Under the pieces are notes generated by a model, which worked only from the letters and a program-made list of their open reading frames with translations, was not told where the DNA came from and made no database searches. A DNA stretch of 64,000 bases from an uncultured Gammaproteobacteria bacterium (GTDB taxonomy: Bacteria; Patescibacteriota; Microgenomatia; Levybacterales; GWA1-39-11), in assembly GCA_964596415.1 (NCBI GenBank), contig CAZQSX010000001.1, positions 37,508-101,507 on the forward strand, read 5' to 3'. Below are positions 26,913 to 59,071 of the stretch, in pieces (position 1 is the stretch's first letter; every line of letters begins with the position of its first letter). The translations under genes and the position numbers were made by a program.

Positions 26913-26967
26913 TTGACAAAGAATGAAGTTTTTCTTAAAATTAGCAATCAGAAGACTAAATTGATAA
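26913..26967 (+). promoter_or_regulatory. groES promoter (TTGACA-17-TAAAAT) followed by a degenerate CIRCE-like operator TTAGCA-N15-TGATAA
   Basis: acTTGACAaagaatgaagtttttctTAAAATTAGCAatcagaagactaaatTGATAAtg. The outer half-sites match CIRCE TTAGCA/TGCTAA (one mismatch). Confidence 0.55.
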
Positions 26968-27278
26968 TGAAAAAGATAGATTCATCAGCACAATCCATCC
27001 AGCCGCTTTTTGGCAATGTACTTATAAAACCACTTGAGCCAGAAACAAAAACTGCATCTGGCATTATTCTTCCTGATTCTGTGAAAGAAAAACCAACTGT
27101 TGGGCTTGTTATGGCAATTGGTGATGGGGATGTTACTCCAAAAGGTGAAAAGCACCCAATGGTTGTGAAAGTTGGACAAAAAGTTATGTATAAAAAATGG
27201 GGTGGGAATGAAGTAAAAGTTGGAAATGAAGAATGGGTAATGGTTGATCAAAAAGATATACTTGCCATTGTTAAATAA
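26967..27278 (+). CDS. groES: co-chaperonin GroES
   Basis: [33 protein letters not shown]...[10 protein letters not shown], with a mobile loop and roof hairpin. Start taken at MKKIDSS. Confidence 0.9.
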
Positions 27279-27334
27279 TTAACAATGGAATTTTCAATTT
27301 TAAATTTTTAATTTTCAAACAAGGAGATAAAAAA

Positions 27335-28984
27335 ATGGCAAAACAAATTATATATTCAGAAGAAGCACGAGCAAAGTTAAAAGCAGGAGTTGATAAGTTA
27401 GCAAATGCTGTTACCACAACTCTTGGTCCAAAGGGTAGAAACGTTGCGATTGATAAAAAATGGGGTGCACCTAATGTTATTCATGATGGAGTAACGGTAG
27501 CAAAAGAAATAGAACTAGAAGATCCATTTGAAAATATGGGAGCACAACTTGTGAAAGAAGCAGCTTCTAAGACAAATGATGTTGCAGGAGATGGAACAAC
27601 CACTGCAACGCTTTTAGCACAGCACATTATTCATAACGGATTTAAGGCCGTTGCAGCAGGATCTAATCCGATGATTTTAAAATCAGGCGTTGAAAAAGGT
27701 GTAGAAGCAGTTGTTGAAGAGGTAAAGCGAATGAGTAAAAAAGTAGTAGATGGAGATGTTGCGAAGGTTGCAACAATTTCTGCACAAAATGAAGAGATCG
27801 GAAAACTTATCGCAGAAGCTTTACACAAGGTTGGGAAAGACGGAATTGTAACTGTTGAGGAGGGTAAAGGACTAGAATTTAGCATTGATTACAAAGAAGG
27901 AATGGAATTTGATAAAGGATACACTTCAGCATACTTTGTGACCAATTCAGACCGTATGGAAGCAGAAATTGATGATGCCTACATATTAATAACTGATAAA
28001 AAAATAACTAATCTTCAGGAACTCCTTCCTTTCTTAGAGAATTTTGTAAAGGTTTCAAAGAATTTAGTAATTATTGCTGATGACATAGAAGGTGAAGCGC
28101 TTGCAATGCTTGTTCTCAACAAACTAAAGGGAACATTTAATGTACTAGCTGTAAAAGCACCAGGATTTGGCGATAGAAGAAAGCAAATGCTTGAAGATAT
28201 CGCAATTTTGACCGGTGGAACCGTTATTTCTGATGATACAGGACGAAAATTTGATTCTGTAACAATTGATGATTGCGGAAGGGCTGAAAAAGTTTTAGCA
28301 ACTGCTGATTCTACGCAAGTAATTGGCGGAAAAGGAGCTAAAACGAATGTGACAAGTAGAATTGCACAGATTAAAAATGAGATAGAAAAATCAACATCAG
28401 ATTTTGACCAAGAAAAACTTCAGGAACGACTTTCAAAACTTTCAGGTGGCGCAGCAGTTATAAATGTTGGTGCTGCAACTGAAATTGAGATGAAAGAGAA
28501 AAAAGAACGGGTTATTGATGCGGTTGCCGCAACAAAAGCTGCGCTTGAGGAGGGGATTGTGCCTGGTGGAGGAATTACACTGCTTAAAGCAAGAATAGTT
28601 CTTGATAAATTAAAAGATAAGACAGCAATATTAGATGAAAAGCAGGGGATAGAGATTTTATATGCAGCGCTTTCACAACCAGCAGCAAGAATTATTTCAA
28701 ATGCAGGAGAAGATCCTGGAATTGTTATGAATAACATTTCAGCGTCAAAAGTAGATGATTATGGATTTAATGTTATGACTGGAAAATATGGCTCTATGAT
28801 AGATGCAGGAATTGTTGATCCAGCAAAAGTGACCAGGTCTGCAGTTCAGAATGCTGCATCAGTTGGCATGATGGTTCTAACAACAGAAGCATTAGTTGCT
28901 GATCTTCCAGAAAAAAATCCTCCATCAGGTGGTATGCCAGGCATGGGCGGCGGAATGCCAGGCATGGGCGGCATGGACTACTAA
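27335..28984 (+). CDS. groEL: chaperonin GroEL
   Basis: [36 protein letters not shown], and a C-terminal [18 protein letters not shown] repeat. RBS AAGGAG. Confidence 0.95.
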
Positions 28985-29120
28985 CGTAGAGAGATTAGAG
29001 CTTAGTGAATAGAGAATAGTTATTTTTCTATAGATTCGATTACCCACTCTTCATATTTTTCATTTAAACTACGTTCTCATTTATACTGAATACTAAATAC
29101 AGTATACTTGATACTGAATT

Positions 29121-57204: not shown

Positions 57205-57225
57205 TGCTGTACAATAATAGTACGT

Positions 57226-59019
57226 ATGCATAAGGTTCGTAAGATTCTTCAGATTCAAGGAAAATTGGCTTATTCATTTTTACTACTCGGTATAGGAATT
57301 GGGATAGTGCTCATTCTTTTATATTTCTTTTTTTCAAGCAGAATTGCGGCAGAAAATGTCAGAACAGAAATATTTCCAGAAGGAGCAAGATATGCAAAAA
57401 ATCAAATAATTGTTAAATATAGATCAGGTTTTTCTCCACATGTATTAAACGCGCAAAACAAAAAACAAGACTTAGATCTTCTTGAAAATAAGCTAAAAAG
57501 TATTGGGGTTATTTCTCAAAATCGATTGTTTATTTCAGATAATATATTGCTTGAAAATTATTACATTTTAAATTTGCCTCAGGATAGTGATATTTTTCAG
57601 GTTTACACAAAGCTTTCAAAATTTTCAGAAATTGATGCAATCACCCCAGATTACATCTTAAGTGTTCAGGAGGTTCCTGATGATCCGGCGTATTCCTCTC
57701 TTTGGGGACTTTCTGAAATTTCAGCACCGAAAGCTTGGGATATTAAAAATGGGAAGAGTAATGTAATAGTAGGAATTGTTGATACTGGAGTTGATTTGAA
57801 TCATGAAGACTTGAAGGGAAACGTAATAAAAGGTGTAAATACTGTTGATGAAACTCGTGATCCTTCAGATGATCACGGGCATGGGACGCATGTTGCGGGA
57901 ACAGTTGGTGCAATCACTAATAATGCAATTGGAATTTCCAGTATTTCTTGGGGCGCAAAGCTATTGGCAATAAAAAGTTGTGATGAAAATGGAGATTGTA
58001 AAACCTCAGATGTATCAAAAGGTATAAAATACGCAATAGATAACGGCGCAAAAATTGTAAATGTGAGTGTTGCGGGTGAAGGGAGTTGTCGGGGTACATA
58101 TGATGATATGAGTAAATATGCAAAAGAAAAAAATGTACTACTTGTTGTTGCTGCCGGAAATGGAATAAATGGGAGAGGAGTAGATGCGAGAAAATGGATA
58201 CCTGCCGGATGTAATGATATATTTACTATTGGTGCGTTTGGTCCGTCTGGAGATCGGGCTCCATATTCAAACTATGGGAATGTTTTGTCTATGTCAGCTC
58301 CAGGAGGAGATAGGGGTTCAGAGGCGTGTACAGAATCAACTTGCATCTTATCAACCAGCAATAACAATACATACTCGCTTCGTCAAGGTACTTCTATGGC
58401 GGCGCCTCAAGTAAGTGGAGCCGCAGCGCTTTTGTTATCATATAATCCATTACTTTCTGTTAGTCAGATTCGCTCGTGCTTGATTCAAGGCGGAGATGTC
58501 TTAACAACTGATAAATACATTGGAAAAAAATTAAACACCCAAAAAGCGCTTATGAGATGTGCGCCCATTGCATCTCCTACGCCTATTCAGAAAGTTGAGG
58601 ATTCTGGAAACTTATCTATTTCTGGCATTGTATATGCAGATGAAAATAATGATAAGTCTTTTGACTCAAATGAGATGCCAATTGTTGGTGCACAGGTTAT
58701 ACTTTCAGGATATGATTCACAAAGTGTTCTCTCAAATTCTACTGGTCGTTATATCTTTCCAGATTTAAAACCTGGTTTTTATACGATTTCAGTTTCAGTA
58801 GGCGGTCAAAGCGCGGGAGATTTGTATGATGTTTCGCTTCTCAAGTTATTTCCAAATGTACAAATAGATCTTCCTATTTCCTCTGAGTATATACCTTCAC
58901 CTACTCAGGATCAAAATCCAAAACCAACCCAGCAAGCATCCAGTATTCAATGTGTCCCTGACCCTGCTTGCGAATCTGCTGAGGGAAGTATTCAAATCTG
59001 CTCGCTGAAATGTGAATAA
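57226..59019 (+). CDS. secreted subtilisin-family (S8) serine protease with I9-like propeptide and C-terminal SdrD-B/Cna-B-like domain
   Basis: N-terminal TM/signal. Catalytic triad motifs VGIVDTGVD (Asp), HGTHVAGTVGA (His), GTSMAAPQVSGAAALL (Ser). C-terminal GIVYADENNDKSFDSNEMPIVGAQVILSGYD...GRYIFPDLKPGFYTISV. Confidence 0.9.
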   Translation: MHKVRKILQIQGKLAYSFLLLGIGIGIVLILLYFFFSSRIAAENVRTEIFPEGARYAKNQIIVKYRSGFSPHVLNAQNKKQDLDLLENKLKSIGVISQNRLFISDNILLENYYILNLPQDSDIFQVYTKLSKFSEIDAITPDYILSVQEVPDDPAYSSLWGLSEISAPKAWDIKNGKSNVIVGIVDTGVDLNHEDLKGNVIKGVNTVDETRDPSDDHGHGTHVAGTVGAITNNAIGISSISWGAKLLAIKSCDENGDCKTSDVSKGIKYAIDNGAKIVNVSVAGEGSCRGTYDDMSKYAKEKNVLLVVAAGNGINGRGVDARKWIPAGCNDIFTIGAFGPSGDRAPYSNYGNVLSMSAPGGDRGSEACTESTCILSTSNNNTYSLRQGTSMAAPQVSGAAALLLSYNPLLSVSQIRSCLIQGGDVLTTDKYIGKKLNTQKALMRCAPIASPTPIQKVEDSGNLSISGIVYADENNDKSFDSNEMPIVGAQVILSGYDSQSVLSNSTGRYIFPDLKPGFYTISVSVGGQSAGDLYDVSLLKLFPNVQIDLPISSEYIPSPTQDQNPKPTQQASSIQCVPDPACESAEGSIQICSLKCE

Positions 59020-59044
59020 TAACGTTAGCAAAAAAGGACTTAAT

Positions 59045-59071
59045 TTGCTAAAATATATGCTCAAAGCTGGA
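59045..59071 (+). promoter_or_regulatory. CIRCE-like operator TTAGCA-aaaaaggacttaatt-TGCTAA upstream of the dnaJ-like gene
   Basis: Perfect outer half-sites with a 15-nt spacer, followed by TAAAATAT and the start codon at 59082. Confidence 0.6.

Follow-up and report, generated by a model that had tools for sequence, protein, structure and literature searches.

Four heat-shock loci lie within a 64,000-nt stretch of contig CAZQSX010000001.1, referred to here as the window, which comes from a member of the Levybacterales. Each has at its promoter an inverted repeat that resembles the operator known as CIRCE (an inverted repeat that controls how chaperones are expressed), and one of them encodes a short form of HrcA, the repressor that reads CIRCE. 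Genes were identified from Pfam and NCBIfam profile scores, and the bit scores of the operators are from a position-weight matrix that was built from the sites of relatives and applied to the whole window. The features of the four loci are as follows.

26913-26941, plus strand: groES promoter, TTGACA-17-TAAAAT, 11 of 12 matches; the last -10 base is base 1 of the operator.
26941-26967: groES operator, TTAGCAATC-N9-AATTGATAA, whose right outer hexamer has one mismatch; 21.6 bits.
26967-27278 and 27335-28984, plus strand: groES and groEL (Pfam Cpn10 and Cpn60_TCP1; NCBIfam GroES).
36381-36410, plus strand: hsp20 promoter, TTGACA-18-TAGACT, with TG before the -10; the -10 is operator positions 17-22.
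36389-36415: hsp20 operator, TTAGCAGTT-N9-GACTGCTAA; 27.6 bits on the minus strand.
36588-37022, plus strand: hsp20, 144 amino acids (Pfam HSP20); the N-terminus MAIIRWNPWN is kept in relatives.
47037-47065, plus strand: hrcA promoter, TTGACA-17-TATATT, 11 of 12 matches, with a TG ahead of the -10, which is operator positions 14-19.
47047-47073: hrcA operator, TTAGCAGTC-N9-TATTGCTAA; 26.3 bits.
47125-47850, plus strand: hrcA, short form, 241 amino acids (PF01628, a weak PF03444 match, an N-terminal match to 1STZ, hhalign, and AlphaFold2 with Foldseek).
47898-48443 and 48531-50462, plus strand: grpE and dnaK (Pfam GrpE and HSP70).
59025-59054, plus strand: dnaJ-like promoter with its operator, TTAGCA-18-TAAAAT; the left operator arm doubles as the -35 and TGcTAAAAT as an extended -10.
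59025-59051: dnaJ-like operator, TTAGCAAAA-N9-ATTTGCTAA; 13.6-13.8 bits.
59082-59954, plus strand: dnaJ-like gene, 290 amino acids (Pfam DnaJ and DnaJ_C).

A pattern search of the window returned three perfect copies of TTAGCA-N15-TGCTAA, at hsp20, hrcA and the dnaJ-like gene, where 100 dinucleotide shuffles gave an expectation of 0.00. When one mismatch was allowed there were four sites against 0.36 expected, the fourth being the groES operator, in which the right outer hexamer TGATAA is the single mismatch. The pattern search and the Pfam-confirmed genes bear out the original prediction that heat-shock inverted repeats are present at these chaperone promoters. The inner triplets that it quoted were all correct when the four sites were read again, and the canonical separation of 15 nt is exact in each; its coordinates for the dnaJ operator (59045-59071) were 20 nt too high, and the motif is absent there. 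All four sites have the geometry of CIRCE, with two 9-bp arms, 9 bp between them and the outer hexamers 15 bp apart, and operators are found, as is typical of CIRCE, at the promoters of both the groE and the dnaK operons. In the position-weight scan of the 64 kb only these four scored above 13 bits; the runner-up (10.1 bits) lay within a coding region. Sites with two mismatches at 18006 and 56619 were rejected as operators, both being inside open reading frames (ORFs) and at a chance-level count. The former (18006-18032, within ORF 16871-18235) is a fully symmetric TTATCA-N15-TGATAA, a two-mismatch variant at chance frequency.

The canonical CIRCE operator reads TTAGCACTC-N9-GAGTGCTAA (Zuber & Schumann 1994, as cited in PMC7464140), and the arm sequence TTAGCACTC/GAGTGCTAA is present at none of the four window sites. 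Their outer hexamers match it at 12/12 bases at hsp20, hrcA and the dnaJ-like gene and at 11/12 at groES. The inner triplets, canonically CTC/GAG, are ATC/AAT at groES, GTT/GAC at hsp20 and GTC/TAT at hrcA, each with 3/6 matches, and AAA/ATT at the dnaJ-like gene, with 0/6.

Conservation was assessed in 80 HrcA loci (1.316 Mb), obtained by scanning one genome per species with an HrcA alignment and spanning Levy-, Gottesman-, Woese-, Curtiss-, Roizman-, Shapiro-, Ames-, Pace- and Beckwithbacteria, and in 80 further loci (L081-L160) from a metagenome scan with GroES; L numbers are labels for the relatives' loci in this analysis. The HrcA loci contained 57 perfect sites and 98 with at most one mismatch, against 0.2 and 4.3 in first-order Markov simulations. 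Ninety-four of the 98 lay within 400 bp upstream of hrcA, dnaK, a dnaJ-like gene or hsp20, the remaining four equalling the background expectation, and the N15 spacing was common to all of them. The motif with at most one mismatch was present upstream of hrcA in 75 of the 80 relatives. The gene order hrcA-grpE-dnaK was kept, and hrcA headed the dnaK operon, directly behind the operator, in about 75/80 genomes. A short HrcA from Dojkabacteria (32% identity) has CTAGCATCT-N9-CTCTGCTAA 10 nt ahead of its ATG, and the hsp20 operator has orthologues in L002, L003, L167-L170 and L176, in line with the predicted placing of hsp20 under CIRCE control. Because 98 sites were found against about four expected, and 94 of them were upstream of hrcA, dnaK, dnaJ or hsp20, we identify the motif from its sequence and position as the predicted HrcA operator. 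Enrichment at heat-shock promoters, on which the original prediction depended, is clear in the window and in the 80 loci, within the sequence available.

We note that nine relatives, Woesebacteria-like and related (L043, L046, L049, L050, L058, L066, L067, L070 and L071), have a second operator within the hrcA-grpE-dnaK cluster, 20-116 nt upstream of dnaK, which implies an internal HrcA-controlled promoter. Many of the short-HrcA loci, L003, L006 and L009-L013 among them, sit in public records under the titles 'uncultured Gammaproteobacteria', 'Pseudomonadales', 'Vitreimonas' or 'Methylococcaceae', and these are likely to be mislabelled bins.

The original prediction held that HrcA in this lineage reads mainly the outer half-sites. 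On this model HrcA would have a relaxed specificity and effectively read TTAGCA/TGCTAA only, with the inner triplets left to drift, possibly because an altered dimer places its two reading heads differently. The window's own inner triplets, with just 0-3/6 matches to CTC/GAG, would fit such a repressor, as would the near invariance of the outer hexamers at relatives' hrcA, dnaK and dnaJ sites, even in Dojkabacteria. Perfect TTAGCACTC-N9-GAGTGCTAA elements were found in the control loci of Bacillus, Paenibacillus, Ruminococcus and Fusobacterium (canonical hrcA comparison genes were sequences from a plasmid collection). Of the four long-form HrcA loci nearest to the query, three have a perfect canonical element and the fourth is degenerate in the left inner arm; the nearest long-form loci thus keep the 9-mer arms, whereas short-form loci do not. 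However, the inner arms of the relatives are far from random. The lineage consensus is TTAGCA-S-TC-N9-nA-S-TGCTAA. At hrcA sites S-T-C (G 51%/C 37%, T 84%, C 83%) forms the left inner arm and T-A-N (A 93%) the right; at other sites the left arm is again S-T-C and the right n-A/T-C. Conservation at positions 8, 9 and 20 is 83-93% in hrcA sites, as against 58-82% in the others. Although the first position-weight matrices selected sites by their outer hexamers, re-estimation by iterative refinement left the inner positions with 0.8-1.2 bits per position at hrcA sites (outer, 1.7-1.8) and 1.1-1.5 at groES sites (outer, 1.2-1.4).

The groES operators also argue against a reading of the outer hexamers alone. 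Those of the relatives read TTAGCA(G/C/A)TCAC-N7-(A/G)AGTGATAT, directly 3' of a TATAAA -10, and keep the inner TC...AG (T 97%, C 94%, A 94%, G 82%), with TGATAT rather than TGCTAA as the right outer hexamer; the inner bases are conserved equally to, or more than, that hexamer. The C-to-A change (TGATAT/TGATAA) is kept in relatives' groES operators and is common to their hsp20 operators, so the TGATAA at groES in the window is a conserved property of groES and not decay. The conserved asymmetry of the right arm at groES, with the C-to-A change that hsp20 shares, suggests deliberately weaker half-sites at these promoters. Taken together with the strong conservation of the winged-helix head relative to canonical HrcA (below), we regard a repressor that ignores the inner arms as unlikely. 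What stood of the prediction is that the outer hexamers are nearly invariant and the inner triplets relaxed; recognition mainly of the outer half-sites found partial support at most. The lineage departs from canonical CIRCE mainly in that positions 7 and 21 accept either G or C and position 19 is degenerate, and the window's genome is at the degenerate end of the lineage's inner-arm range. The operator variation itself is modest.

A plausible explanation for most of the inner triplets lies in the promoters. All four operators overlap sigma-70-like promoters, each in a different register. At hrcA the -10 hexamer occupies the spacer and the right inner arm, its final T falling on position 19, which is a G in canonical CIRCE, and this register holds across the relatives (consensus TTAGCAgTC.TG.TATAtTA.TGCTAA). 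The right arm of the relatives' hsp20 operators, GAGTGATAA, supplies a -10 hexamer TAGAGT. In the canonical controls, by contrast, the operator is 3' of the -10 and overlaps neither promoter hexamer. Since -10 or -35 hexamers sit within the operators, and coincide with the deviations, the latter are plausibly largely explained; the sequences suggest promoter constraint rather than lost recognition. Promoter fusion and a relaxed consensus plausibly account for most of the non-canonical inner triplets, and HrcA need not ignore them. Promoter-overlapping CIRCE-like sites of Campylobacter jejuni have been proposed to repress by occlusion of RNA polymerase (PMC7464140), and the overlap in the window therefore fits repression of this kind.

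Another reading is that the repeats are not protein operators at all. They might be promoter elements of a special sigma factor, or hairpins in the 5' leader RNA that affect mRNA stability or translation. In the dnaJ-like repeat one arm does score as a -35 and the other as an extended -10, and the groES repeat is entirely 3' of the -10 and so would be transcribed. Yet hrcA and hsp20 have separate, near-consensus TTGACA/-10 pairs, and their left arms lie upstream of the predicted start site, where no RNA hairpin is possible. No two of the four repeats are placed alike with respect to their promoters, which fits an operator and not a promoter element, and the motif shares both its outer sequence and its spacing with CIRCE and accompanies hrcA in almost all relatives. 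We therefore consider it highly improbable that the repeats are not protein operators.

The putative repressor is 241 amino acids long from the ATG at 47125, in agreement with the short HrcA that had been predicted, and short forms are general in the lineage. PF01628 matched at 66 bits (cut-off 22.2) over profile positions 73-214 only, with 1-72 unmatched, and PF03444 at 19.5 bits, just under its 21-bit cut-off. A winged-helix domain is present: in a phmmer comparison the N-terminal ~90 residues matched residues 11-103 of 1STZ (E 8e-18). The C-terminal, GAF-like HrcA domain is likewise present, both by PF01628 and by the match of the structural model to 1STZ, and the internal inserted segment of ~100 residues is absent. 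An alignment with canonical HrcA was made profile to profile (hhalign, 13 short HrcAs against five canonical HrcAs). Short and canonical forms aligned end to end with a probability of 100% and 34% identity, with near-identical winged-helix reading heads and ~99 columns without a counterpart. The missing segment is internal and consists of two adjacent gaps, of 27 and 72 columns, at residues ~121-147 and ~161-231 of Paenibacillus HrcA. The reading-head residues SxATIRNxM and H-S/T-S-x-G-R-x-P are conserved in the short form, which fits the retained outer half-site.

An AlphaFold2 model from an alignment of 54 short forms had a mean predicted local distance difference test (pLDDT) score of 94.8 and a predicted template modelling (TM) score of 0.90; a model from only 13 close homologues, at pLDDT 48, was set aside. 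The best match of the model in the PDB was Thermotoga maritima HrcA, 1STZ (Foldseek E 2e-12; TM 0.78-0.80 normalised by the query, 0.60 by the target), in which ~90-100 residues have no counterpart in the window HrcA, hence the lower target-normalised value. IclR-family regulators were the next structural matches. They resemble short HrcA in length and in a two-domain layout of winged helix and GAF-like/IclR effector domain, but with a global TM of ~0.3 and a different sequence family the likeness is one of architecture only.

The segment that short HrcA lacks would sit in a beta-hairpin of the GAF-like domain, by position the place of what Liu et al. (2005) reportedly described in 1STZ as an 'inserted dimerizing domain'. 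The homodimer interface of chlamydial HrcA includes residues 152, 154, 222, 229 and 230 (PMC12154930). These numbers fall in the range missing from short HrcA, an indirect support that would depend on similar numbering of the canonical forms rather than on an alignment. A short HrcA without the reported dimer-interface segment would therefore have to dimerize via another surface or on DNA.

Short HrcA is not peculiar to this genome. In an exhaustive search the cluster representatives fell into two length classes, of ~238-253 amino acids aligned in one stretch and ~335-368 aligned in two; short forms matched end to end down to 29% identity, among 9773 homologues overall. The nearest homologues (63-96% identity) are all ~240 amino acids long, those with names belonging to Candidatus Levybacteria or Patescibacteria, and the short form is found lineage-wide and extends to Dojkabacteria at 32% identity. 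Most are called 'hypothetical protein', because the short HrcA scores 188.8 bits with TIGR00331, under the cut-off of 197.2. Another possibility is that a different regulator binds the repeat and that the 241-residue protein is a decayed or repurposed remnant of HrcA, to which the missed cut-off, the absent canonical dimerization region and the 'hypothetical' name in NCBI would lend themselves. A remnant, however, would hardly be so strongly conserved over a very wide clade, with short forms alignable end to end at 29% identity, nor would it be expected to give a confident model with the HrcA fold, to keep the reading-head residues and to be encoded directly behind the operator at the head of the dnaK operon in nearly all relatives. 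We give very little credence to this possibility. A HspR/HAIR partner system was not seen in the window.

The lineage-wide HrcA without the canonical dimerization segment is the feature furthest from known systems. One speculative and rather doubtful proposal is that the ~240-residue HrcA found in Microgenomates and Dojkabacteria represents a minimal architecture of its own, a winged helix and a GAF-like domain arranged as in IclR, that it does without the canonical dimerization domain and dimerizes via another interface or on a DNA template, that it may sense heat or GroEL differently, and that an altered geometry lies behind both the non-canonical inner arms and the merging with promoters. 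If this were true, the altered dimer geometry would be the reason why the operators tolerate or prefer such inner arms. In the library searched no paper was found to mention HrcA along with the candidate phyla radiation, and among the HrcA/CIRCE matches listed none mentions Patescibacteria.

The dnaJ-like gene begins 8.6 kb beyond the end of dnaK (50462 to 59082) and is followed by two further genes:

60013-60342, plus strand: 109-residue membrane protein, hydrophobic, with no family match.
60335-62731, plus strand: Clp/Hsp100-type AAA+ ATPase (Pfam, NCBIfam).

The CXXCXGXG zinc finger had no Pfam match in the dnaJ-like protein. With TIGR02349 it scored 244.7 against a cut-off of 377.2 and so is not a type I DnaJ by this model; its best full-length match, NF010892 (291 positions), was also below cut-off. 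By its domain content, the protein is a class II-like J-protein that lacks the zinc finger. The J-protein gene of most relatives is directly 3' of dnaK and has no operator of its own. Where dnaJ is more than 4 kb from dnaK, it has its own operator in L041, L052, L060, L063, L066 and L069 and none in L049, L076 and L015; the window follows the detached pattern with an operator. Coordinates, pattern search and Pfam agree here with the original prediction of a dnaJ that is detached by 8.6 kb, separately controlled and without a zinc finger. The ORF of the 109-residue protein overlaps the Clp ATPase gene by 8 nt and the order of the three genes is repeated in L017, and for these reasons the operator at 59025 probably controls all three, which, from their arrangement, probably form an operon (59082-62731).

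The 109-residue ORF was considered as a CbpM/HspR-like regulator and rejected, being a hydrophobic membrane protein without a family match. Homologues of it are found near heat-shock genes in eight relatives (L007, L009, L015-L018, L022 and L023). The Clp ATPase is atypical: it has 798 residues and no Clp_N match, and is far below every NCBIfam cut-off (ClpB 453 against 1232; ClpA 418 against 993, in a single stretch). Only ~44 residues separate the lid of the first ATPase domain from the second ATPase domain, and it seems to be without the long middle domain of ClpB.

We propose, as the probable reading of these data, a conventional HrcA/CIRCE circuit in which the operators are fused with promoters and the repressor is a short HrcA without the dimer segment. 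We infer that an autoregulated HrcA would bind as a dimer to the CIRCE-type repeats of 9+9+9 geometry in the core promoters of groES-groEL, hsp20, hrcA-grpE-dnaK and the dnaJ-like/membrane protein/Clp ATPase genes, and that the bound repressor would block RNA polymerase. Proteotoxic stress, acting through heat or GroEL control, would lead to loss of HrcA activity and hence to derepression of these genes. Several points weigh against this proposal. The dnaJ-like site has no inner-arm match (AAA/ATT) and scores only ~13.7 bits, and its arms double as promoter hexamers, so that its resemblance to an operator could be partly promoter sequence. Selection by outer hexamers inflates the outer conservation, a bias that refinement lessens but does not fully remove, and conservation at orthologous hrcA sites is partly inherited and is not independent evidence.

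Other features of the four loci were noted. The groES ATG overlaps the last base of its operator; the predicted 5' untranslated region is ~19 nt and has no clear ribosome-binding site, and GroES has an N-terminal extension of ~10 residues (26967-27000 in the window). The arrangement of groES-groEL, ~9 kb, hsp20, the pyrimidine genes carB, carA and pyrB on the opposite strand, and hrcA-grpE-dnaK is syntenic in several Levybacteria (L168-L170, with L001). hrcA and pyrB are divergent, with the start listed for the pyrB ORF adjoining the hrcA operator.

The leader of hsp20 had been described as unusually long, and its ATG is indeed 172 nt past the end of the operator. Two features were located within it:

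36443-36454: ancestral hsp20 ribosome-binding site, AAAGGAGGTGAA.
36455-36583, plus strand: strain-specific insertion of ~130 nt, seen in alignment with relatives and absent from the sibling L176.

The relatives share the operator and the leader's first ~25 nt (TGTATAAATTCTTAAG...), and then have 0-110 nt of unrelated sequence up to the ribosome-binding site AAAGGAGGTGAA and, 4-6 nt beyond it, the ATG. In the window ~130 nt separate this ribosome-binding site from the ATG at 36588, and none adjoins the ATG. In the sibling strain L176, whose Hsp20 is 99% identical, the leader measures 77 nt and the ribosome-binding site adjoins the ATG. As L176 is without the insert, the long leader is a recent strain-specific insertion, and it is not a conserved regulatory feature. 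The insert is predicted to fold on itself (-40.4 kcal/mol, z = -2.66), with the ribosome-binding site and AUG at the base of one multi-branch stem. A conserved RNA thermometer was rejected, since the leader ranges from 39 to 172 nt and is variable in content among close relatives. Rfam covariance models found no match at E <=5 in 36280-36650, and in the window as a whole only two tRNAs (15-98 and 228-318, minus strand) reached the gathering score. The 130-nt insert has no second copy across the window and ~170 loci, which leaves a repeated mobile element without support.

The window's regulon is closest to the class I CIRCE/HrcA regulon of the Bacillus subtilis type, with which it shares the outer hexamers and their spacing, hrcA as first gene of the dnaK operon behind its own operator, and a repressor of winged-helix and GAF-like domains. 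It differs in inner triplets that are relaxed (S-TC / nA-S), and more degenerate in this genome; in operators fused with the -10 or -35, where those of the controls lie between the start site and the ribosome-binding site; in also taking in hsp20 and the dnaJ-like/Clp ATPase operon; and in a repressor that lacks ~100 internal residues. CIRCE-like operators of C. jejuni and Helicobacter pylori are, like those of the window, degenerate and overlap the core promoter or start site, and they repress by occlusion (PMC7464140, PMC9696931). The window HrcA is not a member of NF003033, 'HrcA family transcriptional regulator' (264 positions, shorter than the 338-position equivalog model), as it matches with its N-terminal 86 residues only (69 bits against a cut-off of 248). 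NF003033 is, we presume, a family of Epsilonproteobacteria.

A large family of 'hypothetical proteins' can thus be identified as HrcA without the segment where canonical HrcA dimerizes, and a separate short-form model would be a justified addition to annotation pipelines. Short HrcA is a natural test of the need for this segment in DNA binding, dimerization and control by GroEL. Canonical HrcA is hard to handle in vitro, and a naturally minimal HrcA could be a useful experimental object. The most widespread heat-shock repressor system of bacteria operates, at least at the level of sequence, in the candidate phyla radiation.

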